Shown: positions 7,864 through 41,172 of the stretch, piece by piece
Numbering within the stretch: the stretch's first letter is position 1
How the letters are laid out: each line of letters opens with the position of its first letter
DNA from: Flammeovirgaceae bacterium BBD 1991-12
Lineage (GTDB): Bacteria > Bacteroidota > Bacteroidia > Cytophagales > Cyclobacteriaceae
NCBI GenBank assembly: GCA_001657315.1
Contig: LYSV01000022.1
Location: 1,309 to 65,308, forward strand
Direction of reading: 5' to 3'
DNA length: 64,000 nucleotides
The notes under the pieces: model-generated
The model's database searches: none
What the model saw: the letters and a program-made list of their open reading frames with translations, nothing else
What the model was told of the DNA's origin: nothing
Program-made: the position numbers and the translations under genes

Positions 7864-9861
7864 ATGGGAGCAAATTATATATCCACCCTTATCCATGGTC
7901 TGTGCCAACACCGACCATCCGGAAAACGAGGTTATGACCGTATCTGTTTTCGAACGCTGCTGCTTGGAGCAATATTCCTGGCCTTGACCAATGCAGCAGA
8001 CGCTCAGGATCAGGATTCCATCTTTATAAGGCAACACTATGAAAAAATGGAATACAAGATCCCCATGAGGGATGGTATTCACCTGCATACCACAGTGTAT
8101 TCGCCCAAAGACAAGAGTAAAAAATATCCGATCCTCATGCAGCGAACTCCCTACAGTTCCAGACCTTACGGAGAGGGGCAGATGCGCAATCGCATAGGAC
8201 CGTCGCCTTATCTTATGCGTGATATGTATATTGTTGTTTATCAGGACGTTCGGGGCAGATGGATGTCGGAAGGTGATTATGACAATATGAGGCCGCATGT
8301 TCCGGGTAACAAGCCCAAAAACAAAAAAGACATCGATGAGAGCTCAGACACTTTCGATACCATTGAATGGCTCCTGAAAAACATTGATAATCACAACGGC
8401 AAGGTAGGACAATGGGGCATATCCTATCCCGGGTTTTACACGGCTGCGGCTCTGCCTGAAGCACATCCTGCACTCACAGCCTCTTCACCACAGGCACCCA
8501 TTGCTGATTTCTTTTTTGATGATTTCCACCACATGGGTGCCTTTTTGCAAAGCTACCTGGCAGCTTACCCTGTTTTCGGCCATCAGTCAGAGCCTACGGC
8601 TGAGAGCTGGTACAATGATAAGTGGGATGCACTGAGGAAATATGCCAACACCAGGGATGGATATACATACGGGCTGGAGCTGGGGCCCCTGAAAAATGTG
8701 ACGGAGAAGATCTTTCCGGATAATTTCTTCTGGCAGCAGACTGTCGAACATCCCAATTACGATGAATTCTGGCAAAAAAGAAGCATTCTGCCTCACTTGT
8801 CCGGAATTGACCATGCCGTAATGACAGTAGGCGGTTGGTTTGATGCGGAAGACCTGTACGGGCCTCTGAATATTTACAAAACCGTGGAAAAGAATAATCC
8901 CAAGGCCCGTAATACGATCGTCATGGGCCCATGGAGTCATGGTGACTGGGCTGGTGAAAGAGGGTACCAGGCCGTCAATCATATCTATTTTGGGGACAGT
9001 ATATCCACCTTTTATCAGCGGAACATTGAAAGACCTTTTTTCAATTATCACCTGAAAGGTGAAGGTAGCCTGGACCTGCCGGAGGCCTGGATGTTTGATA
9101 CAGGCATTAATGAATGGAAGAAATTTGATGTCTGGCCGCCTCAGAACATTGACCCGGTAAAGCTTCGCTTTGCTGAAGGAGGCAGACTGCTGATCAATGA
9201 AGAGGCAGACACTGAAGTGGCCTTTTCCTATGTGAGTGATCCTGCAAAGCCGGTGCCTTATGTATCGGAGACCCAGGGGGTGACTTTTACTCCCAGGAGG
9301 TTTATGACCGATGATCAGCGCCATGCCAGTAAACGACCGGATGTACTGACCTTCCAGACCGGTCCGTTAAAGGAAGATATCACACTGGCCGGAGAGATCG
9401 TGGCCCGTTTGAAGGTGGCTCTTTCCAGCACAGATGCCGACTTTATCGTCAAGCTTATTGACGTAAACGGACCGGATGCCCAATCTACACGGGCGACTCC
9501 TGATCATGTACTGATGCCCGGGTATCAGCAACTTGTGCGCCATGAGGTGTTTCGCGGACGGTTCAGGAATAGCTTTGCAGAACCTGAGCCATTCAAACCG
9601 GGAGAGATCGAAGAGGTGAATTTTCCCTTGCAGGACATCCTGCACACCTTTAAGAAAGGGCACAGGATCATGATCCAGATCCACAGCACATGGTTCCCCT
9701 ATATCGACAGGAACCCTCAGAAATATGTGGACAATATCTATAAGGCAGAGGCTGAAGACTTTATTAAAGCAGAGATCAGGGTATACGGTAGCTCAGTGAT
9801 CGAGATCGGGGAGGATCAATCCATGAATATACCTATACCATTGGAGGTGTATGGGAAATAA
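7864..9861 (+). CDS. CocE/NonD family hydrolase (Xaa-Pro dipeptidyl-peptidase-like, peptidase S15)
   Basis: The track ORF starts at 7837, overlapping the upstream gene. The ATG at 7864 leaves a signal-peptide-like N-terminus. The sequence has the alpha/beta-hydrolase nucleophile elbow GISYPG and a C-terminal PepX_C-like region. Confidence 0.8.
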   Translation: MGANYISTLIHGLCQHRPSGKRGYDRICFRTLLLGAIFLALTNAADAQDQDSIFIRQHYEKMEYKIPMRDGIHLHTTVYSPKDKSKKYPILMQRTPYSSRPYGEGQMRNRIGPSPYLMRDMYIVVYQDVRGRWMSEGDYDNMRPHVPGNKPKNKKDIDESSDTFDTIEWLLKNIDNHNGKVGQWGISYPGFYTAAALPEAHPALTASSPQAPIADFFFDDFHHMGAFLQSYLAAYPVFGHQSEPTAESWYNDKWDALRKYANTRDGYTYGLELGPLKNVTEKIFPDNFFWQQTVEHPNYDEFWQKRSILPHLSGIDHAVMTVGGWFDAEDLYGPLNIYKTVEKNNPKARNTIVMGPWSHGDWAGERGYQAVNHIYFGDSISTFYQRNIERPFFNYHLKGEGSLDLPEAWMFDTGINEWKKFDVWPPQNIDPVKLRFAEGGRLLINEEADTEVAFSYVSDPAKPVPYVSETQGVTFTPRRFMTDDQRHASKRPDVLTFQTGPLKEDITLAGEIVARLKVALSSTDADFIVKLIDVNGPDAQSTRATPDHVLMPGYQQLVRHEVFRGRFRNSFAEPEPFKPGEIEEVNFPLQDILHTFKKGHRIMIQIHSTWFPYIDRNPQKYVDNIYKAEAEDFIKAEIRVYGSSVIEIGEDQSMNIPIPLEVYGK

Positions 9862-9928
9862 TTCAGGTGCTTTTGATGCTACTGTTGTTTTAAGATCTGG
9901 AGGTAGTGACGCTACCTGCATAGCTATC

Positions 9929-9943
9929 AGTGGTGCCACGACT
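9929..9943. repeat. solitary copy of the 15-bp terminal repeat AGTGGTGCCACGACT of the MITE-like family
   Basis: An exact 15-mer shared with the ends of the elements at 25294-25487 and 47110-47211. It is intergenic, and no partner end was seen nearby. Confidence 0.4.
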
Positions 9944-10003
9944 CTCAACGAGATTTATGTAAACGAAGTCATGAACGTAAAAAGAGTATAATTTTATCAG
10001 TCC

Positions 10004-21900: not shown

Positions 21901-22045
21901 GATCTCTGTACTAAGCCGGAGTAGCCGAAGCCTAAAACTAATGGTTTCTGTTCTAATTCCTTTAGAAGTGATATAGGAGATATGGTATTAAGCCGGTCAA
22001 GGTTTTTCCAATAAGTTACCTGCCTGCCGGAACGTTAGTGCAGGC

Positions 22046-22148
22046 AACTTCCAACTTCCATCTTCCAACTTCCAACTTCCAACTTCCATCTTCCAAACCT
22101 CCAACCTCCAACCTCCAACTTCCAACTTCCATCTTCCAACTTCCAACC
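22046..22148. repeat. heptanucleotide tandem repeat (AACTTCC and variants ATCTTCC/AACCTCC), about 14.5 units
   Basis: Read directly from the sequence: aacttcc aacttcc atcttcc aacttcc aacttcc aacttcc atcttcc aaacctcc aacctcc aacctcc aacttcc aacttcc atcttcc aacttcc aacc. It lies between the divergent CDF and BNR genes. Confidence 0.9.
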
Positions 22149-29802: not shown

Positions 29803-30425
29803 GTTTCAATCCTTCTTACTGTGGAAAGTGCTCAGAAAGCGTTGTGTCCGGTAGGTGAGAGATCCGCCGCGTCGTTGTTTCAATCCTTCTTACTGTGGAA
29901 AGTGCTCAGAAAGAGGAAGAACATAAAGAACTATATGATCGTTCTTGGGAGTTTCAATCCTTCTTACTATGGAAAGTGCTCAGAAAGCCGGTGGTGTCAA
30001 AGGCATAATAGACCTTACCGTAATGTTTCAATCCTTCTTACTATGGAAAGTGCTCAGAAAGACAATAATTCCTCTTATTAGCCGTCCCCAAATGAACAGT
30101 TTCAATCCTTCTTACTATGGAAAGTGCTCAGAAAGGTTAATCAGGATTTTCTATGCACAATTCCGGAAAAGTTTCAATCCTTCTTACTATGGAAAGTGCT
30201 CAGAAAGCAATTGGTCATTGTATACTTTCTTAATGCGTTCATAGTTTCAATCCTTCTTACTATGGAAAGTGCTCAGAAAGGGGAATGAATACATGGTTCG
30301 TCAGCATGAGTGGAAGGTTTCAATCCTTCTTACTATGGAAAGTGCTCAGAAAGAGAACGCTTGACTGTTTCCAGGGAAATCTCTTTTTGTTTCAATCCTT
30401 CTTACTATGGAAAGTGCTCAGAAAG
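29803..30425 (-). CRISPR. CRISPR array, 9 repeats of 37 bp and 8 spacers of 35-37 bp
   Basis: The + strand repeat is GTTTCAATCCTTCTTACTATGGAAAGTGCTCAGAAAG, with starts at 29803, 29877, 29951, 30025, 30099, 30171, 30244, 30317 and 30389. The two repeats farthest from cas (29803, 29877) carry ACTGTGG instead of ACTATGG. On the minus strand the repeat ends in ATTGAAAC, which matches the cas orientation and a leader at 30426-30621. Confidence 0.97.
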
Positions 30426-30621: not shown

Positions 30622-31197
30622 CTATTTTATGCATATATTCCGGTAGGTACAAGTTAGGCATCTTTTCTTATATCGGGTGGCACGGGGATAATAATTGTCA
30701 GCAATAATTTTACCGATCTCCTTTACGGCCTCCCTTACCATTTCCTTATGATCTGCTGTCACCTCTATCTCTACTACCTTGTGCTGGCTTCTCACGTACA
30801 CCAAAAAGCCCCTTCTTACAGTACATTGAAAGTTTTCTTCTATGAGCCAGGCATAGCAATACAATTGTGTCCTGTATGTCTCATATACCTTGCCCTCATA
30901 GCGGGCAAATTTGTAGTCCAGGGGCGACATGCTCCGGTCTTCCAACGTAAGCACCTCATCTACTCTTCCCCGCAGCCCGTTGTGTGTCAGGTACTGATCT
31001 GTTCGTTTTTCTGTGGCACCTATCCTCTTTCGAAGATAATCCTTGTTCCTTTCCAGTTTTTGGTCGTGAACTTCCCTGCCTCTCATGGCCTTGTAGTCTT
31101 TTTCTTCGTACTGAGGTATGGCAAGCACATATTCGAAAAAGGTGAACCTGGGGCAGTACAGGTACTGTATGATATGGGAAGGGGTAAGGCTGATCAT
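30622..31197 (-). CDS. cas4: CRISPR-associated exonuclease Cas4 (RecB-like, 4-Cys)
   Basis: It has an N-terminal Cys (YCPRFTFFEY), a RecB nuclease core (DEVLTLED..LDYK) and a C-terminal CLTCTYRNIC cluster. The ATG at 31197 is preferred over the track start at 31251. Confidence 0.85.
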   Translation of the reverse strand: MISLTPSHIIQYLYCPRFTFFEYVLAIPQYEEKDYKAMRGREVHDQKLERNKDYLRKRIGATEKRTDQYLTHNGLRGRVDEVLTLEDRSMSPLDYKFARYEGKVYETYRTQLYCYAWLIEENFQCTVRRGFLVYVRSQHKVVEIEVTADHKEMVREAVKEIGKIIADNYYPRATRYKKRCLTCTYRNICIK

Positions 31198-31290
31198 GGT
31201 GTTAATAGTTATTGAGTCGTAAGTGGGCAATCGGCAAATAGCAATCAGCAAAGTACGTTTCTTAGTCTGTTAAACGGAATAGTGCCGTCA

Positions 31291-31581
31291 TTATAAAAAA
31301 AGCTCCCGCACCTCATCGGTGACCATATCCTTGTCGAAGGCCTGCCCCAGCAGGATGGTCTGTCGTAGCTCCTCCTGGCTCATGGGGAAGATGTAGACAG
31401 AATCTTCATCGGGATCCGTCATTTCCTCCAGTTGTAGTGCGAGGGTATCCTTGTCTGAAGGGGTAAGGGTACCCAGAAAGACAGAATACTGGACCCGGTA
31501 AATGCCACTTTGCAGACATGCTTTTGCCGCTTCCCTGCGGCGTTTATCGTCTTTTATGTCGTACATTATCCACACGATCAT
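31291..31581 (-). CDS. cas2: CRISPR-associated endoribonuclease Cas2
   Basis: 96 aa with a ferredoxin-like Cas2 pattern (IVWIMYDI..RVQYSVFLG). It overlaps the cas1 stop by 4 nt. Confidence 0.9.
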   Translation of the reverse strand: MIVWIMYDIKDDKRRREAAKACLQSGIYRVQYSVFLGTLTPSDKDTLALQLEEMTDPDEDSVYIFPMSQEELRQTILLGQAFDKDMVTDEVRELFL

Positions 31582-32570
31582 GGCTTTCCTATTAGTTCGT
31601 TCGCAAAACGGTGAGCGTCCAACTGCATGGCGTGTGCACGCGTAAGATTACGGCCGTTATGACGGATCTTGTCGCCCTCCATATATTCGTTGTACCTGCC
31701 CACCAGCAGGGACTTACCTTCGGTATTCAGGGAATATCCGTTGGTGATCCGGTCGGTATGGGCCTTATTGATCTGCTTTCCGGAAAAAAGCCGGTATACC
31801 ACACGTTCGGCATGTATACGGTACGGTTCTATGAAGTCATAGACAAAGCTCAGTTGGTTGTAGTCGTCCCGGTGCATGAAGCCGAGGTAAGGGTCCAGCC
31901 CCGCGATGATCAGCACTTTTTCCACCCTCCCATAGAGCATACCATAGGCATAGTTCAGAAATGCATTGAAAGGATCAGCAGCCGGCCGGAAGCTGCGCCC
32001 CCTGAAGCAGTACTCTTCCGAAAGCAGGGTGCTTAGTGTTTCGAAATAATATCTCCCTGCCGTACCTTCCAGCCCGCGCAGGGTGTCTGCCACGGCCTGT
32101 ACATCCTTGCCGGAGGTAGCTGCTATTTTGGAGGCCTGGCTGTCCAGCTTATCCACAGCTTTTTGTATTAAGTCTGCCCTGGTTTTTCGGTGCTTTTTCA
32201 GGTCCATCAGGAATTCCCGTTGGTTGGTGATCTTACTGGTGAGCCATTCGAGGATCCATTTCAGCCCGGTTTCGTTGAGACTGGCTTCCAGTTGGGCTTT
32301 ACGGATCTTTGTGGTGCTGCCCAGCTTGCTGTGCCATACCCTGCCGAAGGGTTGACCGTCGTATTCCACAAAGACGATGTCCACGTTGAACATCATGCCC
32401 AGCTTGATGGCATCGGTACTGAGGGCGGCCTGGGTGGCAATGAGGATGGAAGCGACCTTTTGGGCAGCAAAGAGATGTTTCTTTACTTCACCGTCCTTTT
32501 TTAAACGGACCTCGAACATCTTATCCTTTACATGAAGATAGGCGCCGGGGGTGTTCAGGTGGAGTTGCAT
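31578..32570 (-). CDS. cas1: CRISPR-associated endonuclease Cas1
   Basis: 330 aa with the Cas1 layout: an N-terminal beta domain and a C-terminal helical domain with LRGLEGTAGRYYF, NAFLNYAYGML and DPYLGFMH motifs. Confidence 0.95.
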   Translation of the reverse strand: MQLHLNTPGAYLHVKDKMFEVRLKKDGEVKKHLFAAQKVASILIATQAALSTDAIKLGMMFNVDIVFVEYDGQPFGRVWHSKLGSTTKIRKAQLEASLNETGLKWILEWLTSKITNQREFLMDLKKHRKTRADLIQKAVDKLDSQASKIAATSGKDVQAVADTLRGLEGTAGRYYFETLSTLLSEEYCFRGRSFRPAADPFNAFLNYAYGMLYGRVEKVLIIAGLDPYLGFMHRDDYNQLSFVYDFIEPYRIHAERVVYRLFSGKQINKAHTDRITNGYSLNTEGKSLLVGRYNEYMEGDKIRHNGRNLTRAHAMQLDAHRFANELIGKP

Positions 32571-32602: not shown

Positions 32603-33268
32603 TTAGGACACGCGCGCGATGACGCCGTAGCCTCTCGAAACAGATTTGCCAAGCCCGATATAGTCTGGTAGCAGGATGTTGGCAGTGAACCGGCCCGAAA
32701 AGGCAAACATTCGCTGGTCCTTGAACCGGGTTTTCGAGGGGCTCACGGTCAGTTGCACCAGCAGGCGCTGGGCAGACTCGAGGTAAATATCCAATCCTTT
32801 TAAAAAGGACAAGACATTACCGATGAGGATACGCTTGAGGTGTTGTTGTCTGCCGGGTTCGTCTGCTTTCATGTATTCCCGGTAGTTTTTCTGGTTAAGG
32901 CCCATCCAGAGGGTCTTAAAGGCATAGGTATGCAGATCCTGACCTACCTCAGGCTGCCACTGACGGCTCACAATGTTTTTGGTATGTATCGGAATGACCT
33001 CGTCGTCCAGTTTCAGTTCTCTTACTTTGGTGAACAGGCTGGCCAGCAACTCAGCGCCCTCACCGAGGCCAATAAGGCAGGGGATCTTGTCGATCACCTT
33101 GTACTGTACCAGAGGATAGCGGTACCGGAGCGAGCCGTCTTCCAGGTGGTTGTGCAGCAGGGGAGAGTGCTCTCGGAAAAGGGTGCCGAAATAGCCCCGA
33201 AGCTTATGCCCTGCTGAGGGATGGAGACTCAGCTCGGGGAAGGTGATATGGGCAATGGGAATAGTCAT
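32603..33268 (-). CDS. cas6: CRISPR-associated endoribonuclease Cas6
   Basis: A RAMP fold with AGHKLRGYFG near the N-terminus and a C-terminal glycine-rich loop (GLGKSVSRGYG). The ATG at 33268 is used here. The track TTG at 33286 would overlap the upstream stop by 4 nt. Confidence 0.8.
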   Translation of the reverse strand: MTIPIAHITFPELSLHPSAGHKLRGYFGTLFREHSPLLHNHLEDGSLRYRYPLVQYKVIDKIPCLIGLGEGAELLASLFTKVRELKLDDEVIPIHTKNIVSRQWQPEVGQDLHTYAFKTLWMGLNQKNYREYMKADEPGRQQHLKRILIGNVLSFLKGLDIYLESAQRLLVQLTVSPSKTRFKDQRMFAFSGRFTANILLPDYIGLGKSVSRGYGVIARVS

Positions 33269-33282
33269 GGGCAGTACGCTGT

Positions 33283-33939
33283 TCAATTAAAATAGTCGGC
33301 TGTACTGAGTGACCAGTCGCCCGAATAGAACAGTCCTTCCAGCGCTTCATTGATGGCCGTGAGGTCAACAGTATCCGGGTCGTACTTTTCACGGGAAGAA
33401 AGTCCCATCCATTCCCGCATTTCCATGTGCTCCGGATGTTTTTTATTGGTGATGATCTCCAGAAATTCTGCATACCCCCATGGGCCTCCCACATCTTCCG
33501 GCGGGCAGGCTCCACAGGCCTCCACGCAAAGGGGTGACCCTTTCCAGACCTGCAGGTCTTTTTTGGTGGGTTTCTGGAAAGTGATCCTATGCCACCAGTC
33601 GTCGCCGAAGTCATACCAGTACCAGAAGGGCTTTCGTTGTCCTGCCATCTCGAAGCTCTCCTGCAGCATCACATTATCTGCCGGATAGGCATCGAAGTGA
33701 CGTGCGAAGAAATTGTCATCATCATATGGTATGTTGGCCACAAAGGATGGGTCGTACTGTTTGTCCTGGAACTGGAACAAATGAGCAAACTCCCATCCCA
33801 TGGTCACCTGAATGATGAAGTGGAGTTGCAGCATGTTGATATTTTCCGGTACCAACACTCTGCGGTAAATGCTGTGGGGCATGTTCTCAAGGTTGATCTT
33901 TAGCTTGAGGGGAGGTGGGTGGAGAGGGATGGTTTTCAT
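33283..33939 (-). CDS. MM3350-like / plasmid pRiA4b ORF-3-like (PRiA4_ORF3) domain protein, function unknown
   Basis: 218 aa with the family signatures YWYDFGDDWWHRITF and CPPEDVGGPWGY. It lies between cas3 and cas6 on the same strand, with gaps of 42 bp and 15 bp or less. Confidence 0.85.
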   Translation of the reverse strand: MKTIPLHPPPLKLKINLENMPHSIYRRVLVPENINMLQLHFIIQVTMGWEFAHLFQFQDKQYDPSFVANIPYDDDNFFARHFDAYPADNVMLQESFEMAGQRKPFWYWYDFGDDWWHRITFQKPTKKDLQVWKGSPLCVEACGACPPEDVGGPWGYAEFLEIITNKKHPEHMEMREWMGLSSREKYDPDTVDLTAINEALEGLFYSGDWSLSTADYFN

Positions 33940-33981: not shown

Positions 33982-36378
33982 CTAAAGAGAAATTGACGAT
34001 AACTTATCATAAACATATCCTTCATTTTTTTGAATGTTTGAACTATCATAACTATAAATTTTAAAATTTTGGTTATTGTCGTCATTACATAAATAAAATC
34101 CATTATAAGGTTCAATAGGCAACTCTAAAGAAGTTTGATTATGTGGTATCGGGACGTTTATCACATAATCATAAAATTTTGACTTTATTGTTGAAAATAA
34201 TTTTCTTCGATCAAAATGAGAAAGAGATTCATCCTCACTGATCCTGACAAACTCGCCCCATAATTCTTTGGCCTCGTTGTTCAAAGCTATGAATAGCGAT
34301 TCAGACTTTATTTCCTCTATTAATTCGAACTCTCCTACTGCTTTAAATTCCAGATTTAGCAAATGATTTAGTAACTGTTTATCTGAATGATCGGACAAAT
34401 CCTTTACTTGTTCAAAATAACTCTCTATAAGAGGAAGGTAGTTCTTCTCCTCAATAACTTCCACATTACCAATAACAAGCTCTGTTTTAATCATCAGGTC
34501 TTTCCCATAAAGCTTGCATGAAGAATTGTACTGTTCATCAATTTTATAAAGAAAAACATCACTTAAGGTGTGTTTTTCAGAATACCTATTTGCCCGTCCG
34601 GCTGCCTGAACAATAGAATCCAGAGGAGCCAATGCACGAAATATAGTGTCCACGGAGATATCTACTCCTGCTTCGATAAGTTGGGTACTTGCAATAATGT
34701 AACGTTTACCAGGGTCCCTCTTTTCGAGTTCGTTTATGATTTTCTTACGTTCATAGGGTGTTATTAATGTGGTCAAATAACGTAATTGGCTTCCATCAGA
34801 GAGCCTTTTTTTAAGTTCCCGAAAACACTTCAATGTGACTTTCTTGGTATTTAGTATAATTAAGATATCCTTTTGAGGGTTCTTTTCAGCATAAACTAAA
34901 ACCTCATCCAGAAAATCCTCCATTGGGATAGATGTATTTGTTTTATTGACAAGTCTTGTTCTATTGAAAAGCGAAAAATATTTCTGGTAATCAGGCACCA
35001 ATTCCTCAATTTCTCTATTAGGGTAAAAAATTAAAGGCTGTGTTGCTGATATCAATACAACATAGCAGTTGAGCTGTTTCGTGATTGTGAAAAATGCTTG
35101 CCGTATTGTCGGCCATAAATTATAGGGAATTTGCTGAACTTCGTCTAAAAGAATGATAGAATTGGAAAGAGAAGAGAACTTCAACAACTTACTCTTGTTA
35201 TTTGTGATTAAGCATTCCAATAATTGAACAAAAGTTGTACAAATTACTGCGCTTTGCCATGTTTCAATTAAGTATTGACTTTCATCTTCATTCCTTATTG
35301 AGTCTTCTCCCTCTTTATATTTTTGTTCGGCAAGATGATGGTGCTTCAATAACATTGTGCTATCCGGGTTATTAAAGACTTTCTCATAAACCTGATAGTT
35401 CTGGTCAATGATACTTGTAAAAGGAATGGCAATTATGATTCTCCCATCTTCTAGTCTCGCTAACGATTTAAGTTTCAGAGCTGCTCCCAGGGATGTAAGT
35501 GTTTTGCCTAATCCGGTGGGTAGAGTTATTGAATAAAATCTTTTCTCTTTGTTAAATTCCTTTTCGAGTTGGTTAAGAACAGAAAAAAAAGATTCGTTTT
35601 TGTATTGATCCAGCTTAGAACTCGGTTGATCGAATCCTTCTAAACGTCTGTATTCATTCAAACATTCGAATCCAGGAAGTGCCAGAGTTGGGAAAGAACC
35701 TTCCAATATAACATCAGCCTTGTCAGAATAAAGAAGAGTACCGAACATCCATAGAAAAAAGTAATAGGCGGATGATTTTTGCGGATCGTCCCAATCACTG
35801 AATTGTCCCAGCTCAAAGTCCAGATATTCGAAATTAGCCTCTTGTTCAAAACCACCACAATTGAACCATGCAATAAAATCGTTCCACTGAACACTAAAAT
35901 CAACCTGAGAGAGACATTCATCGATTATGTCCTGTACATCTGTGGTAGGTATCGAAGCATATTGTTTCTCTAAGTCACTTTCTTTATAGCCTATAGAAAT
36001 CTCTTCTTTAAAATCAAGAAGGTGGCCATGATGCCTTTTTACCACTGTAAAGCATACAGATGCTAAAAAGAAACTTTGCGCTTTTTCCTTGGAAAGGGAT
36101 TCGATAAATTTTTTCACAACGAAGAAAACAAACACAGCCGAAGGAAGGGCATGGTTTTTCAAAGCCGAATGTTCGGCTTGTGGATTTTTCAGATATTCTT
36201 GAAAATATGAGGTGGCTTTACCCAGATCATGAAAAACACCACAGATATATACAAGTGCCTCCTTCGTATTTTGTGAAAATCCAAAATCGGTAGTAGCGGA
36301 TTGTGCAATTTTCAAACAGTTAGAAGCAACTGCTTTTAAATGCTTAATTAAAGGAACTCCTGGGTGAGATTCAATCAT
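33982..36378 (-). CDS. cas3: CRISPR-associated helicase/nuclease Cas3 (HD domain fused to SF2 helicase)
   Basis: 798 aa with an N-terminal HD nuclease (HLKAV.., GVFHDLGK), helicase motif I (PTGLGKT), motif II (LLDEVQ) and a C-terminal helicase lobe (QAAGRANR). Confidence 0.93.
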   Translation of the reverse strand: MIESHPGVPLIKHLKAVASNCLKIAQSATTDFGFSQNTKEALVYICGVFHDLGKATSYFQEYLKNPQAEHSALKNHALPSAVFVFFVVKKFIESLSKEKAQSFFLASVCFTVVKRHHGHLLDFKEEISIGYKESDLEKQYASIPTTDVQDIIDECLSQVDFSVQWNDFIAWFNCGGFEQEANFEYLDFELGQFSDWDDPQKSSAYYFFLWMFGTLLYSDKADVILEGSFPTLALPGFECLNEYRRLEGFDQPSSKLDQYKNESFFSVLNQLEKEFNKEKRFYSITLPTGLGKTLTSLGAALKLKSLARLEDGRIIIAIPFTSIIDQNYQVYEKVFNNPDSTMLLKHHHLAEQKYKEGEDSIRNEDESQYLIETWQSAVICTTFVQLLECLITNNKSKLLKFSSLSNSIILLDEVQQIPYNLWPTIRQAFFTITKQLNCYVVLISATQPLIFYPNREIEELVPDYQKYFSLFNRTRLVNKTNTSIPMEDFLDEVLVYAEKNPQKDILIILNTKKVTLKCFRELKKRLSDGSQLRYLTTLITPYERKKIINELEKRDPGKRYIIASTQLIEAGVDISVDTIFRALAPLDSIVQAAGRANRYSEKHTLSDVFLYKIDEQYNSSCKLYGKDLMIKTELVIGNVEVIEEKNYLPLIESYFEQVKDLSDHSDKQLLNHLLNLEFKAVGEFELIEEIKSESLFIALNNEAKELWGEFVRISEDESLSHFDRRKLFSTIKSKFYDYVINVPIPHNQTSLELPIEPYNGFYLCNDDNNQNFKIYSYDSSNIQKNEGYVYDKLSSISL

Positions 36379-36381
36379 TCC

Positions 36382-37143
36382 TTACAATAGTTGAATATTT
36401 CCTTCACCTTCAACTTCATACGAAGAGTCATTTACTTTTGACATAACTGTTTTGCCTGTAGTTTCTACCAGTATTTCTCCATATCGGGTGATGATCCTGC
36501 TGTGCAGCATTTCAATGGGTAGCGTTTCTACTTGGATCTGGAGTGTTTTCATCGATTTAAAATCTACAGGAGAACTCTCCTTGTTTAAGGAGGAAAGATT
36601 AATTGCAGAATAAAAAGGGAGGAAGTCACGGCTTTCTATTTTCTCTGCCCTCTTCTCACCTACCCAAATGACATTGGCTGTAAATTGACTGAGCCCCAAA
36701 TAGGGATTGAAATGAAAGTGTGTGGTTTTAATCCGCTCAATTAATTCATTCCTTCTCGGATGCTTCCAATCGAGATAAATTCTATACAGTGGTTTTTTTA
36801 GCAGTTCATACTCAATTTGTGTCCTGTTTGTAATGTTAAAAAAGGTTTGTGGAGAGCCCGTATCCAACAAATTAAACCCTACATTGACTTTGTTGACTTT
36901 ATTCAATACACGAACACCAATCCTGGCTTTTTGAGAAGAGAAAACCTGGCGAAGAGACTCATTCCCTTCTCGTATGTTTCCTTTACTATCTTCTCTTTCA
37001 ATACCTAGAATTGCTCCTAATAATCCTGCCACGGCTGTAGGGGTAGGAATGCAATAGGACAGTGGAGAAGTCGTGACATTGAACTTTCTGAAGTGACCGT
37101 ATTCAGCTGAAATGTCAAATACAATAAACGGGCTAGAGTTCAT
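36382..37143 (-). CDS. cas5: CRISPR-associated protein Cas5 (type I-B)
   Basis: 253 aa with the N-terminal Cas5 signature (AEYGHFRKFNVTTSPLSYCIPTPTAVAGLLGAILG). Confidence 0.85.
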   Translation of the reverse strand: MNSSPFIVFDISAEYGHFRKFNVTTSPLSYCIPTPTAVAGLLGAILGIEREDSKGNIREGNESLRQVFSSQKARIGVRVLNKVNKVNVGFNLLDTGSPQTFFNITNRTQIEYELLKKPLYRIYLDWKHPRRNELIERIKTTHFHFNPYLGLSQFTANVIWVGEKRAEKIESRDFLPFYSAINLSSLNKESSPVDFKSMKTLQIQVETLPIEMLHSRIITRYGEILVETTGKTVMSKVNDSSYEVEGEGNIQLL

Positions 37144-38044
37144 TTATAAGGCCATTTTTCAACTCAACGGATTGGTCTCCATCCAGTATTTTAAGCCTGG
37201 GATCTACCTGGACTAATATGTTTTCAATTTTATCGGAATTTTCTCTTAAGGCATTCCTGATTTTTGAAATGTCCAATGCATAATCCTCAGTGCCTCTGAT
37301 TTGAAGATCATTTTTATCTGTTCTCAGTTTTAAAAGCTGTCTTAGTCCACCAATATAGAAGGGTTCCTTGTAGTTGACAATTAGCAGCAGCATAGGTACC
37401 TGTCCAAACTTGGAACGGGAGATCAAATTCTTGGTTCCATTCCATATGCCATCAATTAAAAGATCTTTGTCCTCTTCGGTCATAGAGGTGTATTGAGCCG
37501 CTTTTTCATTTATGATGCCATTAAAGCCAATTAATGCATAGGGTACTTTATATTCTATTCTAAAGGTGGCTTGTCCTTTCTTTTCGCCTGATGCAAAAGC
37601 CCCAGTGCCCTGTTCTGTTACGATATCTACCTCATGAAGTGATTTCCCCATTTGAAATTGGGTAGGACCTGTAAATGTGAATGTATCTCCCTTAATGGGT
37701 AAGATCCCACCAAACACTCTAACATCAATACAGGTTTCCAGAACTTTGTCTTTACTTTCTTTGAATATTTCAGCACGTTGCTTTCCAGAAGTCACAAAAC
37801 TTTTCCCATCTATTTCATACTTTGTTTCTCTTACAAAAATGTCTTTGCCATTAGAGCCGTTAAAACCTTTGTATTCAAACCAATAATCCCTGATAGTTCT
37901 CTTCAGTCTTACGTCTGATACCAATACCTTATTATCTTCGGTATCAAACCTGGGACGATTTTCATTCAATGGATCTCCATTGGGGTTTGCATTTTCTATT
38001 TCATAAAGAAATAGAATTTCTGATCTCGTATTGATTGTATCCAT
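37133..38044 (-). CDS. cas7: CRISPR-associated protein Cas7 (Csh2/Cas7b-type backbone subunit)
   Basis: 303 aa with an N-terminal NANPNGDPLNENRPR motif and VSDVRLKRTIRDYW, typical of the type I-B/I-C Cas7 family. Confidence 0.9.
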   Translation of the reverse strand: MDTINTRSEILFLYEIENANPNGDPLNENRPRFDTEDNKVLVSDVRLKRTIRDYWFEYKGFNGSNGKDIFVRETKYEIDGKSFVTSGKQRAEIFKESKDKVLETCIDVRVFGGILPIKGDTFTFTGPTQFQMGKSLHEVDIVTEQGTGAFASGEKKGQATFRIEYKVPYALIGFNGIINEKAAQYTSMTEEDKDLLIDGIWNGTKNLISRSKFGQVPMLLLIVNYKEPFYIGGLRQLLKLRTDKNDLQIRGTEDYALDISKIRNALRENSDKIENILVQVDPRLKILDGDQSVELKNGLINEL

Positions 38045-38049
38045 AATAT

Positions 38050-39918
38050 TTATGATTGATTCTGTGCTTTCTTCTCTGGTTTAAACTTTCTTCCTAATTC
38101 CAATCCACTCACGAAATAAAATGATATTTCCTGATTAGTCATTTTTTTGACCTCTGTAAAGTTGATACTGAAATTATCGGTTACATACTCCCTAAGTTCT
38201 TGATATTTATACACTGAAAAGTATTGGTTGAGTTTATCAAGTCCCTCCAAGAATATTTTTTGAATATCCTTTGCCGAAAGGTTTAATCCTTTCAATTTTT
38301 TTTCAAACGGAGTGTTTTTTAATTCTATGTACTGCTTGTCCAGTACTAGCCTAATTAAAACTCCAATGCTGAAAATTCCAGCAATATGATTGGCATAGAT
38401 AAATTCTTTATTTCTGTTTAAAAATGATTTGAGATTTTCTAATAACTCATGGCCTACATTTGAACTTTCTTTTTTTTCTTCTTCTGTTTCAGGAATCATA
38501 ATGGTATAATTTGGGGTAATTACAACGTTTAATTTTTCAAGGTAACGAAGGACAAGATGTGCTTTGAGGAGAATCAATGAACTATCTTCAACAAAACCAT
38601 CATCTGTCATTCTCTTATTATGGTTCTTTCTAATAACATCCATAAACCTGCTTAATAAATCTGCCCTATTAAGGTTTTGGCCCTGAAAAACCTTGTAGAT
38701 AATATCATAGAAACTGTCTTCAAAAAATTGTTTGATAAGACCAAAGCCAAATCTCAGGTCCACTTTTTCCTTTGCATTAAAATTATAGTCGGCATTTAAG
38801 TAGAGGGGGTGATTATTGATGGAATTTGGCACTTCAATGAACAAGGTTCTGAACCTGGAAGGAGGGATTTCCTCCAGCATCAACTTAATTTTGATGGCCT
38901 TTGTAGTGGGATTTTCTTCATAAAAAAGTAAATCCAGAGTGAAAAAATTTTCCAATCCTCCAATTTGCTCCATCAGGTAGTCCTCTCTTCTTTCTATGTC
39001 TTTTTTTTTCTCATCGCTACCTGCCTGATATGTCAACTCCTTAAAAAGGTTAAGCGCCTTTTTCAGATTGGCTTTGTCATCGGGTAAAATAGTCTTCGGA
39101 ATGAGAAAATATCTCTTCCCAAAGAAGCTTCTTGATAAATATTTTTGAATATAATTTTTGCCCAACTCAAATTCCAGGGCACAATCTTCGCAAATAGGGT
39201 AGTTAATCCAGTTGTTCTTCTGATTGAAAAAACCACTCACAGTTCCGGGTTTATCAACAGTGGCGTATTTAAAGGGTGAGGCGAAACCATACAATGTATC
39301 TTTTTGGAAGCCACAAATTGAACAAGTGTTGTTCTGCCCTACAGAAGTAACATTGTACTTGTTCTTCTTCCCATCTGTCCCGCTCAGGAGTATTTGTTTT
39401 TGAACGGATTTATAATCGACTAGTAAGCTTTTCCTTCCGTCGGATTCAAGAACAAGTGTAAAGGCACTTTTTTGCTGTTCTTTTTTGTCCAGCCCGGCGT
39501 GAAAAGTGGCCAGATCCTTTTGTATTTGATCTTGATTTTGCTCAAATGCATTTTTCCATTCCTTAAACAGCTTATATTCTTCGGGTATGTCCTTTGCAAT
39601 TTCCAATAATGATGGCCATTGCGTGTTGAGAAGAACCCCGAATTTCTTATCAAGATCGCCAAACTTGGTTGTGAAGGTCACATCTCCTCCTCGAGGTGAT
39701 CCCTTTCTATATCCATATCGTTGATAGTTATCAACGTTTACTTTGTCAATATCTACGTGCTTATAATGAAGTTCTTCCTCTCTTTTCTCAAAGATGATCA
39801 AAGCCATAAAACAAACATTTCCGGGAGTGATCTCCTGGACATAAAGCTGATAAGGCTTTATGTCAGTACGATTGCTTAATTCCAACTTCCCGATTTCAGT
39901 GATTGCTCTATCTTGCAC
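38050..39918 (-). CDS. cas8b: type I-B large subunit Cas8b-like protein
   Basis: 622 aa (GTG start in the track), first gene of the effector operon, upstream of cas7-cas5-cas3. It has a central Cys pair cluster (CSICGF ... CEDCA) as in TM1802/Cas8b-type large subunits. The call rests mainly on position and size. Confidence 0.7.
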   Translation of the reverse strand: MQDRAITEIGKLELSNRTDIKPYQLYVQEITPGNVCFMALIIFEKREEELHYKHVDIDKVNVDNYQRYGYRKGSPRGGDVTFTTKFGDLDKKFGVLLNTQWPSLLEIAKDIPEEYKLFKEWKNAFEQNQDQIQKDLATFHAGLDKKEQQKSAFTLVLESDGRKSLLVDYKSVQKQILLSGTDGKKNKYNVTSVGQNNTCSICGFQKDTLYGFASPFKYATVDKPGTVSGFFNQKNNWINYPICEDCALEFELGKNYIQKYLSRSFFGKRYFLIPKTILPDDKANLKKALNLFKELTYQAGSDEKKKDIERREDYLMEQIGGLENFFTLDLLFYEENPTTKAIKIKLMLEEIPPSRFRTLFIEVPNSINNHPLYLNADYNFNAKEKVDLRFGFGLIKQFFEDSFYDIIYKVFQGQNLNRADLLSRFMDVIRKNHNKRMTDDGFVEDSSLILLKAHLVLRYLEKLNVVITPNYTIMIPETEEEKKESSNVGHELLENLKSFLNRNKEFIYANHIAGIFSIGVLIRLVLDKQYIELKNTPFEKKLKGLNLSAKDIQKIFLEGLDKLNQYFSVYKYQELREYVTDNFSINFTEVKKMTNQEISFYFVSGLELGRKFKPEKKAQNQS

Positions 39919-39931
39919 TCTTTAATTTTTA

Positions 39932-39948
39932 TGTGTAATTTTTGTTTA
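39932..39948. promoter_or_regulatory. putative partial protospacer (target of the crRNA-like element) in the cas8b 5' region
   Basis: TGTGTAATTTTTGTTTA matches 16 of the 17 nt that follow the degenerate repeat at 40046-40062. It lies 14-30 nt upstream of the cas8b start codon. Confidence 0.4.
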
Positions 39949-40029
39949 CGTTTTGATAAATCAAACTTGCATTATTATATTTGATTTTCCAAATCGTTTG
40001 CTCCAGGCCCTAGCCAAAAAGAGGAAACC

Positions 40030-40081
40030 TAAAATGGATTGAAACTGTGTCATTTTTGTTTAGATGACTCCATAAAAAGAA
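40030..40081 (+). ncRNA. candidate crRNA-like regulatory RNA (degenerate repeat 3' half plus psi-spacer; CreR/CreA-like)
   Basis: TAAAATGGATTGAAAC (40030-40045) matches 14/16 of the 3' end of the CRISPR repeat in its transcribed sense. A candidate promoter on the + strand is TTTG (39952-39955), a 20-nt spacer, then TATATTTG (39976-39983). The 3' end is undefined. Confidence 0.4.
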
Positions 40082-40099
40082 GGCTTGTACAAGATTCCA

Positions 40100-40172
40100 A
40101 GCCCTGTAGCTCAATTGGATAGAGCCGACCTAACGAAAGGTCAGGTTCCGGGTTCGAATCCCGGTGAGGCTT
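40100..40172 (+). tRNA. tRNA-like element with non-canonical anticodon arm (possible tRNA pseudogene, Arg-like D arm)
   Basis: It has a canonical D arm (GCTC AATTGGATA GAGC) and T arm (CCGGG TTCGAAT CCCGG). The anticodon arm folds as GACCT/AGGTC with a 6-nt loop AACGAA, or as 4 bp with an 8-nt loop. The acceptor stem has one C-A mismatch and two G-U pairs. Confidence 0.5.
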
Positions 40173-40202
40173 TTTGAAAATTTTTATTAAGACTGTTTTA
40201 AT

Positions 40203-40487
40203 ATGTTCGAGTATGATCATAGTCGGTTAAGCTTAAACGAATTACATAAAAAAGGAATTAGAACTATCAGAGAACTTGAAGAAGTAGTTGAAGGATATTC
40301 ATTTGCTGAAGAATTTTTCTTTGAGGAACTAGGGTACAAAGTGATTCGTTTTACGGGCTTTACCAGGAATTCAAAGGCTCTTAAAATTGCATGTAAAATC
40401 GGAGTTGATGGAAAACTCATCACCCTAGACGCCCGTATACCTACAGTGGAGGAAATAATAGAGGACTTTTGTAAAAAGTGCCAATAA
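40203..40487 (+). CDS. hypothetical protein (94 aa), AT-rich
   Basis: A clean ORF with an ATG start in the AT-rich block next to the cas operon. I could not recognise a family. Confidence 0.5.
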   Translation: MFEYDHSRLSLNELHKKGIRTIRELEEVVEGYSFAEEFFFEELGYKVIRFTGFTRNSKALKIACKIGVDGKLITLDARIPTVEEIIEDFCKKCQ

Positions 40488-40535
40488 TATTTACCAAAGA
40501 TTTTCTGCCCGGTAAATAATTGATATATTTCGAGT

Positions 40536-40700
40536 ATGAAAGGTGTAAAATCTGAAAATAAACATGCCAGCTCCAACCCTTTCCTTGGTGACAAGGCCGA
40601 TGAACTTTGGGAAAAGCTGGATAAGAAGGGCAAGCCAGTCACCAAAGAGCAGCTTCTTAATGAACTAAGGGAGGCGAGATCAAAACATACCAAACTATAG
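40536..40700 (+). CDS. hypothetical small protein (54 aa)
   Basis: An ATG-to-TAG ORF translated by hand (MKGVKSENKHASSNPFLGDKADELWEKLDKKGKPVTKEQLLNELREARSKHTKL). It is below the track length cutoff. It is charged and helical-looking, and no family was recognised. Confidence 0.3.
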   Translation: MKGVKSENKHASSNPFLGDKADELWEKLDKKGKPVTKEQLLNELREARSKHTKL

Positions 40701-41172
40701 CTGGCATCCATACATACCTTTCCCATCCGTGTGCATGCTTTTTTCTTAAAATGTAAGTTCAACGAACAAAGGTTATCTTCTGTATGAATACCGATAGATC
40801 CAAACCACCTGTCACCTACTTCCACATCACCCACACCACCAACTCCATCGAATCCTTCGACGCTAAGGAATTCCGTAAAAGAATAGAAACATCCCGCAGG
40901 GAAAAGCGATCTTCCGGAAAGAAATAGCAACGCGTTTTGATAAAGAGAGAGTGAATGATTTTCTGCCACCGCTGTCACTCTGTAAGCGACCAAAGACAGG
41001 AGAGAAGTAGTGTGCTGGTGCATAAGCCTCAATTCGGGACATGCTACGGATATTATCCGGGGGGAAGCAATTGTCAAATTTCTGTTAATCAGAAAGTTAG
41101 TATATATGACGGATATTCACAACCGTCACAGGGACAATTTGATATGAAAGATATCGGGCCTGTTAAGTAGAT

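Follow-up and report, generated by a model that had tools for sequence, protein, structure and literature searches.

CreR genes are degenerated mini-CRISPRs (CRISPR denotes short palindromic repeats that are clustered and regularly interspaced) that were shown experimentally for subtypes I-B, I-E and V-A and were recognised on visual inspection in further type I subtypes (Liu et al. 2023, bioRxiv 10.1101/2023.03.10.532045). Regulatory mini-arrays are predicted in about 19% of bacterial I-B loci, where toxin-antitoxin genes are enriched beside them; the spacers of these class 1 mini-arrays partly match, over at least 10 bp on the seed side, effector-promoter sites flanked by a protospacer-adjacent motif (PAM) (Shmakov et al. 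2023, PMC10120712). In the related CreTA system of haloarchaeal type I-B loci, the toxin CreT sequesters tRNA-Arg(UCU). CRISPR RNA (crRNA)-like guides, or crlRNAs, were later extended to the control of defence genes (bioRxiv 10.1101/2024.12.27.630466), with subtype I-B appearing there only as 'Abi-like genes possibly regulated by I-B'; the later crlRNA preprints include phage mimics, and the taxa named are Pseudomonadota, Bacillota and Actinomycetota. Here we analyse a stretch of 64,000 nucleotides (nt) from Flammeovirgaceae bacterium BBD 1991-12 (Cyclobacteriaceae; contig LYSV01000022.1), hereafter the window, in which a degenerate mini-array stands back to back with cas8b, the first gene of a type I-B effector operon. 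This mini-array very probably encodes a CreR/crlRNA-type guide that places Cascade on the cas8b promoter or 5′ region and represses the operon without cleavage.

The mini-array occupies 40027-40091 on the plus strand, in the order psiR1, psiS, psiR2 (a spacer-like sequence between two degenerate repeats), and is divergent from cas8b. It starts 109 nt upstream of the cas8b start codon, adjacent to the complete I-B operon. Its parts and the site matched by psiS are the following (the slash in psiR2 marks the Cas6 site):

40027-40045, plus strand: psiR1, a degenerate repeat with the ATTGAAAC 5′ handle intact; predicted Cas6b cut between 40037 and 40038
40046-40068, plus strand: psiS, a 23-nt spacer-like guide whose positions 1-17 equal the target except at position 6
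40069-40091, plus strand: psiR2, TCCATAAAAAGAAGG/CTTGTACA, identical to the last 23 nt of the repeat at 17 of 23 positions
39932-39948, plus strand: target (protospacer-like) site TGTGTAATTTTTGTTTA, 13 nt from the GTG start codon of cas8b
39929-39931, plus strand: TTA, a PAM-like trinucleotide that borders the target on its 5′ side (non-target strand)

The psiR1 core, TAAAATGGATTGAAAC (40030-40045, plus strand), is identical at 14 of 16 positions to the 3′ end of the CRISPR repeat, which reads CTTTCTGAGCACTTTCCATAGTAAGAAGGATTGAAAC in its transcribed sense, and the 8-nt 5′ handle ATTGAAAC is exact. It is the sole match with at most three mismatches to the repeat 3′ end outside the array in the 64-kb window, and at two or fewer mismatches the chance expectation is 0.10 matches per 64-kb window. 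The first 17 nt of psiS, TGTGTCATTTTTGTTTA (40046-40062, plus strand), agree with TGTGTAATTTTTGTTTA at 16 of 17 positions, the single mismatch being position 6. Within the window, no third site follows the psiS/target pattern, and besides the array and a 7-nt tandem repeat no direct repeat other than the pair TGTGTCATTTTTGTTTA/TGTGTAATTTTTGTTTA reaches 16/17 with its copies spaced by 30-250 nt.

These two matches had been reported in an earlier note on this DNA, made from its letters, and they were borne out together with all of its coordinates and sequences. A shuffling test that the note had proposed rejects a chance match: over 20,000 rounds of dinucleotide shuffling, the 111-nt intergenic target region never gave at least 16/17, and when the query was shuffled instead such matches appeared at a frequency of 5e-5. 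The description of the repeat as solitary did not survive. The second degenerate repeat, psiR2, is conserved in relatives and carries the element beyond position 40081, where the note had ended it. psiR2 retains the TCCA...AAGG part before the Cas6 site and is degenerate in its handle part; a TCCA-N9-11-AAGG/ATTG motif with a degenerate final tetranucleotide lies downstream of psiS in 15 related loci. Cuts at the canonical site in both psi-repeats would release a 46-nt RNA (40038-40083). As in CreR genes, the 5′ handle is kept in psiR1 and the 3′-handle part in psiR2, both in the window and in the 15 loci.

Loci with Cas8b relatives were taken from reference genomes (L001-L008), metagenomes (L009-L030) and assemblies of individual homologues (L031-L039). 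The nearest relatives belong to Cytophagales, Cyclobacteriaceae and Flavobacteriia, and 16 non-redundant loci from these groups, including the window, formed the comparison set. In all 16, a psi-repeat stands divergent from cas8b, and the sequence next to it matches a site located between this psi-repeat and the cas8b start codon. The layout is the same in the 15 loci other than the window, whose Cas8b proteins are 52-69% identical to that of the window. Mesonia oceanica ISS653 and Maribacter aurantiacus are among the carriers of the module. The guides themselves differ from locus to locus: compared with TGTGTCATTTTTGTTTA in the window, psiS reads TGAGTTATTTACTATT in L002, TATTAAATGTGTA in L003, CATATAGTTGTTTATT in L005, TATGTAACAAATTAATA in L009 and CTTGTAAATTACTGTTAA in L032. 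Each nevertheless follows its own target, with 218 matches out of 224 (97.3%) at the 14 non-flipped positions within 1-16, against 51% for the targets of other loci; different psiS also average 51% identity to each other. The co-variation check across orthologous loci that the earlier note had called for was thus strongly passed.

In type I Cascade, every sixth base of the guide is flipped out and remains unpaired. The earlier note had used this to discount the mismatch at position 6, and the wider set agrees: counted per position from 1 to 18 over the 16 loci, the mismatches are 0, 0, 0, 0, 0, 12, 0, 0, 1, 0, 0, 9, 2, 1, 0, 2, 6 and 11. Positions 6 and 12 account for 21 of the 27 mismatches within positions 1-16 (binomial P = 1.5e-14) and match at a rate of 34%, equal to background, whereas positions 1-5 and 7-11 hold one mismatch in total. 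Position 18 is mismatched in 11 of 16 loci. Substitutions at positions 6 and 12 vary even among close relatives, position 6 of psiS and target in the CATAT group being A/A, G/T, T/A or C/A, and they therefore reflect repeated independent events. The 6-nt periodicity is the footprint that would be expected of selection acting through Cascade.

The flanks of the two copies differ. In the window, TTA precedes the target and AAC, the end of the handle, precedes psiS, as had been noted earlier. Across the set, TTA stands 5′ of the target in 14 of 16 loci and TTG in the other two (L002 and L037), and psiS itself is preceded by AAC, AGC, AAT or ACT. The 5′ handle is conserved across the related loci but altered to ATTGAACT in the two TTG loci. 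In all 16 loci complementarity stops by position 16-21, so short that an R-loop could not be completed.

More distant loci (L006, L008 and L018) have rearranged mini-arrays that still match a TTA-flanked site nearby; in L018, psiS matches such a site on the other strand. In the Spirosomataceae loci L006 (about 9150-9725) and L008 (about 9530-10000), the mini-array runs in the direction of cas8b, its psiS has the full length of 35 nt, and the TTA-flanked site that it matches is located 40-50 nt upstream of the mini-array. Between this mini-array and cas8b lie a hairpin and a small open reading frame (ORF) rich in cysteine.

Candidate promoters were placed around the target by motif scans:

39952-39983, plus strand: candidate mini-array promoter, TTTG/TTGATA, a spacer, then TATATTTG at 39976-39983
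39962-39969, minus strand: CAAGTTTG, candidate cas8b -7 box of Bacteroidota type; the complement of 39990-39993 reads TTTG

The plus-strand boxes are those that the earlier note had named, and a sigma-70-type scan also picks TTGATA-17-TATATT at 39953-39981 on the same strand. The true start of cas8b is the GTG at 39918, as the note had assumed, because homologues start with MQDRAI at the same codon. If CAAGTTTG is the cas8b -7 box, the window target would fall at about +7 to +23 of the cas8b transcript. The proposal that the target lies just downstream of the transcription start is thus compatible with the candidate box in the window, but it does not extend to several relatives, whose target sits on the -33 regions. 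In L005, L011, L026 and L038, a perfect TATATTTG for cas8b is separated from the ATG by 21-28 nt, and 10-20 nt past the target there is a -7 box in psi sense; in the motif scan the target of these four loci lies between back-to-back -7 boxes, on both -33 regions. A psi-sense -7 box stands in the equivalent place in L002, L005, L011, L026, L038 and L039.

The machinery that such a guide would need is encoded next to it. A complete type I-B CRISPR-Cas locus occupies the minus strand of the window, identified by NCBIfam and Pfam matches above cut-offs and by a repeat ending in ATTGAAAC:

38050-39918, minus strand: cas8b/Csh1 (TM1802 family), first gene of the effector operon and presumed regulated gene
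37133-38044, minus strand: cas7/Csh2 (NCBIfam/Pfam)
36382-37143, minus strand: cas5b (NCBIfam/Pfam)
33982-36378, minus strand: cas3 (NCBIfam/Pfam)
33283-33939, minus strand: PRiA4_ORF3-like gene (PF07929, E = 3.5e-49)
32603-33286, minus strand: cas6b (Pfam Cas6b_N and Cas6b_C, E = 1e-29 to 1e-35), expected processor of psiR1 and psiR2
31578-32570, minus strand: cas1 (NCBIfam/Pfam)
31291-31581, minus strand: cas2 (NCBIfam/Pfam)
30622-31251, minus strand: cas4 (NCBIfam/Pfam)
29803-30425, minus strand (as the cas genes): cognate CRISPR array with nine 37-nt repeats and eight spacers of 35-37 nt

The sequences themselves show how the element is built and that it is conserved, that guide and target co-vary, that mismatches recur every 6 nt, that the PAM-like trinucleotide is kept, and that Cas6b and a complete I-B effector are encoded. 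Transcription, processing, loading and repression without cleavage we infer, along the following lines. The mini-array would be transcribed on the plus strand from the promoter at about 39952-39983, divergently from cas8b, and Cas6b would cleave each psi-repeat 8 nt before its end, yielding an RNA of about 46 nt composed of AUUGAAAC, psiS and UCCAUAAAAAGAAGG. This crRNA-like RNA would load into type I-B Cascade (Cas8b-Cas7-Cas5). Cas8b would then read TTA beside 39932-39948 and the guide would pair over about 17 nt, the flipped-out positions 6 and 12 not counting. Where pairing ends, the R-loop would stay incomplete, Cas3 would not be licensed and the DNA would remain uncut. Bound Cascade would obstruct RNA polymerase, either at the promoter of cas8b or early in its transcribed region, resulting in autorepression of the effector operon, and titration of Cascade by crRNAs, or its inactivation, would lift this repression. 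The earlier note had already proposed Cascade repression in the manner of CreR and CreA, a reading that the conservation and guide-target co-variation in the 16 loci support.

The locus resembles CreR in having a psiR1-psiS-psiR2 unit beside the effector genes, in the partial, seed-side match next to a PAM (here PAM-like) at an effector promoter, and in its predicted outcome, autorepression without cleavage. The extent of the match is also close, with 16-17 nt in the window and 15 consecutive nt shared between the Salmonella I-E CreR and its target. Unlike the CreR genes of Liu et al. (2023), it occurs in a Bacteroidota host, its mini-array is divergent from a cas8b-first operon, psiS is only about 23 nt long, and a tRNA-like gene is fused downstream. 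The I-B cases of Shmakov et al. lie near cas6 and target the cas6 promoter (PMC10120712), whereas the window guide matches the cas8b promoter. As in CreTA, I-B Cascade would be reprogrammed by a degenerate crRNA and divergent promoters (candidates in the window), one of them for cas8, flank the target. There is also a shared link to tRNA-Arg, which CreT sequesters as tRNA-Arg(UCU) and which the RNA partner in the window resembles; unlike in CreTA, where a separate transcript is repressed, the putative cargo of the window would share its transcript with the guide and follow it there. No small toxin RNA of the codon-trap kind was identified in the window. More broadly, crlRNA-supervised defence genes, type II tracr-L and scaRNA likewise depend on a CRISPR-derived guide of limited complementarity that makes a Cas effector a repressor of cas or neighbour genes, but their effectors, guide architectures and targets differ.

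The main texts on CreR, regulatory mini-arrays and crlRNAs contain no Bacteroidota, no cas8b-first I-B operons and no tRNA-like partner, although the supplementary tables of Shmakov et al. may list such loci. The statement in the earlier note that such an element had not been described for a Bacteroidota type I-B locus is therefore consistent with the main texts of the four key papers. The mechanism class itself is already published as widespread, and its occurrence in Bacteroidota I-B is an extension, carrying crRNA-guided Cas autorepression beyond Pseudomonadota, Bacillota, Actinomycetota and haloarchaea. Neither a guide of about 23 nt nor a fused tRNA-Arg-like gene is described for the CreR class in those main texts. 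The set also offers unusually clean natural evidence for the mechanism: 16 loci keep about 14 pairing positions and TTA, positions 6, 12 and 18 drift, and the complementarity is never long enough for cleavage. For these systems it predicts TTA as the PAM and TCCA...AAGG/ATTG as the minimal Cas6b recognition part, and deleting psiS or mutating the target would provide a native handle to switch the cas operon on. The short guide and the fused gene raise questions on guide maturation and on Cascade-controlled cargo.

Sequences directly after psiR2 bear on this last point. The earlier note described guide and target correctly but overlooked a tRNA-like gene at this position, and two small ORFs follow it:

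40099-40173, plus strand: tRNA-Arg-derived cloverleaf, 75 nt, with a 6-nt anticodon loop AACGAA, then a T-run; directly after psiR2
40203-40487, plus strand: ORF1, 94 amino acids (aa), BrnT/RelE-like predicted fold
40536-40700, plus strand: ORF2, 54 aa, likely antitoxin

The tRNA-like gene is probably co-transcribed with the mini-array. In the window it is called "tRNA-???" with a two-base "anticodon" by ARAGORN and scores 39 bits against the Rfam tRNA model; despite its cloverleaf, it lacks the 7-nt anticodon loop with U33 of a canonical elongator tRNA. A tRNA-like gene follows psiR2 in 10 of the 16 loci (the window and nine more), 9-22 nt past the psiR2 cut site, for example at 9487-9558 in L001, 9795-9868 in L003 and 9762-9835 in L005 (minus strand, locus coordinates). 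Rfam scores are 30-50 bits or below threshold, compared with 65 bits for a genuine tRNA-Arg in L003. Stem pairing was assessed on a hand-made, structural, N-padded alignment, MAFFT having misaligned the anticodon arm. On this alignment, which was fitted to the cloverleaf and is biased in favour of pairing, 92% of cells pair and 12 of 21 pairs are changed on both sides; no shuffle reached the observed covariation score, and slid registers collapse.

The body is tRNA-Arg-like, with a GGATA D-loop containing A20 and an N-C-G/U-A-A loop, so that A20, C35, G/U36 and A37-A38 are kept. The anticodon loop has 6 nt (A[A/C/U]CGAA) in the window, L003, L005, L009, L011 and L038, and 7 nt with A33 in L001, L026 and L031; it is canonical only in L035. 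Position 34 drifts (ACG, CCG, UCG, CCU, ACU). In L009, where the tRNA-like gene lies about 150-240 nt upstream of cas8b (minus strand), a CCCGA-GAAA-TCGGG hairpin replaces the T arm, and the acceptor and anticodon arms are retained. The 5′ end of the tRNA-like gene faces the cas genes and the genes beyond vary by locus, which indicates that it travels with the module. Two other explanations were rejected: that of an attachment-site remnant, as the gene is not truncated, points its 5′ end at the island and has co-varying stems, and that of loop pairing with the repeat 5′ end, which fits the window only and not L003. A scan of IMG/VR for the tRNA-like core with the odd loop returned five unrelated chance matches, with no sign of phage origin or of a phage mimic.

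Loci whose next gene is convergent tend to have the tRNA-like gene, and those in which co-directional ORFs trail the mini-array tend to lack it, which fits a role in termination or in forming the 3′ end; the conservation of the loop hints at a more specific function. A mild version is that it may act as a natural tRNA module setting the 3′ end of the crRNA-like guide, as in engineered tRNA-gRNA arrays. A bolder one, which we consider quite doubtful, is that it is a working RNA cargo instead of a passive terminator, freed by Cas6b and RNase P from a Cascade-gated transcript, that accumulates as a tRNA-Arg mimic upon loss or inhibition of Cascade. Such a mimic would, for example, titrate arginyl-tRNA synthetase or stall decoding, and the tRNA-like gene would then be a tRNA-shaped counterpart of the CreT toxins acting through tRNA-Arg.

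ORF1 and ORF2 are among three small conserved ORFs in 40203-40927 (plus strand), for which a Pfam search gave nothing significant. The AlphaFold model of ORF1 (pLDDT 88) is nearest to 7vd7_A, a chain of a Salmonella toxin-antitoxin complex (TM-score 0.68, E = 5e-3), and to the BrnT ribonuclease toxin, which provides moderate evidence that ORF1-ORF2 form a type II toxin-antitoxin pair. The two ORFs recur right behind the mini-arrays of L002, L032 and L034 and in L045, a different type I locus, and they also stand alone in L046, away from any cas gene. L045 (2811-3000) has an unclassified 612-aa Cas8-like protein and a Cas6 of the I-A family, and CTTGTgAATAAaAAC and CTTGTaAATAAtAAC, which differ again at positions 6 and 12, lie ahead of its ORF1-ORF2. 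Genes for WYL-domain regulators adjoin the mini-array/tRNA-like module in L035 (227-1159) and in L009, where the gene is convergent to the module.

Several observations weigh against Cascade-guided repression of cas8b. The promoter positions, including the overlap of target and promoter, are motif matches only. The window psiR1 retains only about 16-19 nt of the repeat, and psiS is about 13 nt shorter than real spacers (23 vs 35-37 nt). L004 has a psi-repeat but a weak seed match, and a simple handle search was negative in L010, L012, L014, L015, L017, L019, L021, L023, L025 and L028-L030, which have more distant Cas8b proteins (at most 47% identity) and may still carry such an element. No protospacer was found for the spacers of the L003 and L005 arrays among 50,697 phage records, nor for one window spacer in IMG/VR, so that the PAM rests on conservation only. 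The features that Cascade guidance would explain also separate it from simpler accounts of the same sequences. An ordinary antisense small RNA acting on the 5′ untranslated region of the cas8b mRNA, by translation block or decay and without Cascade or DNA binding, would make use of the complementarity of psiS to this predicted region near the start codon, seen in the window and in loci whose site lies 3-22 nt from the start. Yet an RNA-RNA duplex accounts neither for the sixth-position mismatches, nor for the conservation of a TTA outside the duplex, nor for that of a crRNA 5′ handle with Cas6 sites. In L005, L011, L026 and L038, moreover, the site is upstream of the perfect cas8b -7 box and hence is not transcribed into the mRNA, which excludes a purely antisense mechanism in those loci; we regard this explanation as very improbable overall. 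Just as improbable is the idea that the 17-nt copies are operators of a protein regulator, or that the psi-repeats are the functionless, decaying remnant of an old array or duplication. Direct repeats in promoters often serve as operators for proteins, arrays commonly end in degenerate repeats, and WYL-domain regulators adjoin the module in L035 and L009. But one copy always lies exactly at the end of the crRNA handle, the copies co-vary across taxa though psiS sequences share only 51% identity, freedom to vary is confined to positions 6, 12 and 18, the flanks differ (TTA vs AAC), and a neutral remnant would not persist over a Cas8b divergence down to 52% identity.

A closer competitor, though still an unlikely one, keeps Cascade at the target and changes its purpose. 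The mini-array would be the antitoxin half of a CreTA-like safeguard, instead of or besides a Cas regulator: Cascade at the target would also shut the plus-strand promoter, which would drive the tRNA-Arg-like RNA and, in the window, the BrnT-like toxin-antitoxin pair, and loss or inhibition of Cascade would free this cargo to arrest the cell. The -33 region of the psi-sense promoter borders on the target or shares part of it, resembling the divergent P_cas8/P_creT around the CreA target of Haloarcula hispanica, and every locus with enough sequence has a co-oriented cargo straight after psiR2, either tRNA-like (10 loci) or ORF1-ORF2 (L002, L032, L034 and L045). The co-varying stems of the tRNA-like gene, which keeps Arg identity positions while U33 or the loop size is lost, and the likeness of the ORF1 model to toxins (7vd7_A, BrnT) point the same way, as do the published CreT toxins acting via tRNA-Arg sequestration and the enrichment of toxin-antitoxin genes beside mini-arrays. 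On the other hand, guide and putative cargo would share one transcript, unlike the described CreTA pairs; the tRNA-like gene is decaying or remodelled in L039 and L009 and absent elsewhere; ORF1-ORF2 occur without cas genes in L046; and a complete type II toxin-antitoxin pair need not be toxic when it is transcribed more strongly. We conclude that repression of the cas operon by a Cascade-bound, CreR-type guide is the best reading of the mini-array.

Some minor features of the CRISPR-Cas loci were also recorded. The PRiA4_ORF3-like gene (33283-33939) interrupts the cas operon between cas3 and cas6b, and tblastn against all related loci fetched found no homologue of it. A SusC/RagA gene, which marks the host as one of the Bacteroidota, adjoins the array, in which the two leader-distal repeat copies (29803-29913) read ACTGTGG and the remaining seven ACTATGG. 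In the Flavobacteriia-type loci L003, L004, L005, L007 and L038, Cas8b comes in two pieces, a protein of 469 aa and the product of a second ORF of about 139 aa, which likewise matches Cas_TM1802. Elsewhere in the window, a 7-nt unit, CAACTTC, is repeated in tandem in 14.6 copies at 22045-22147.

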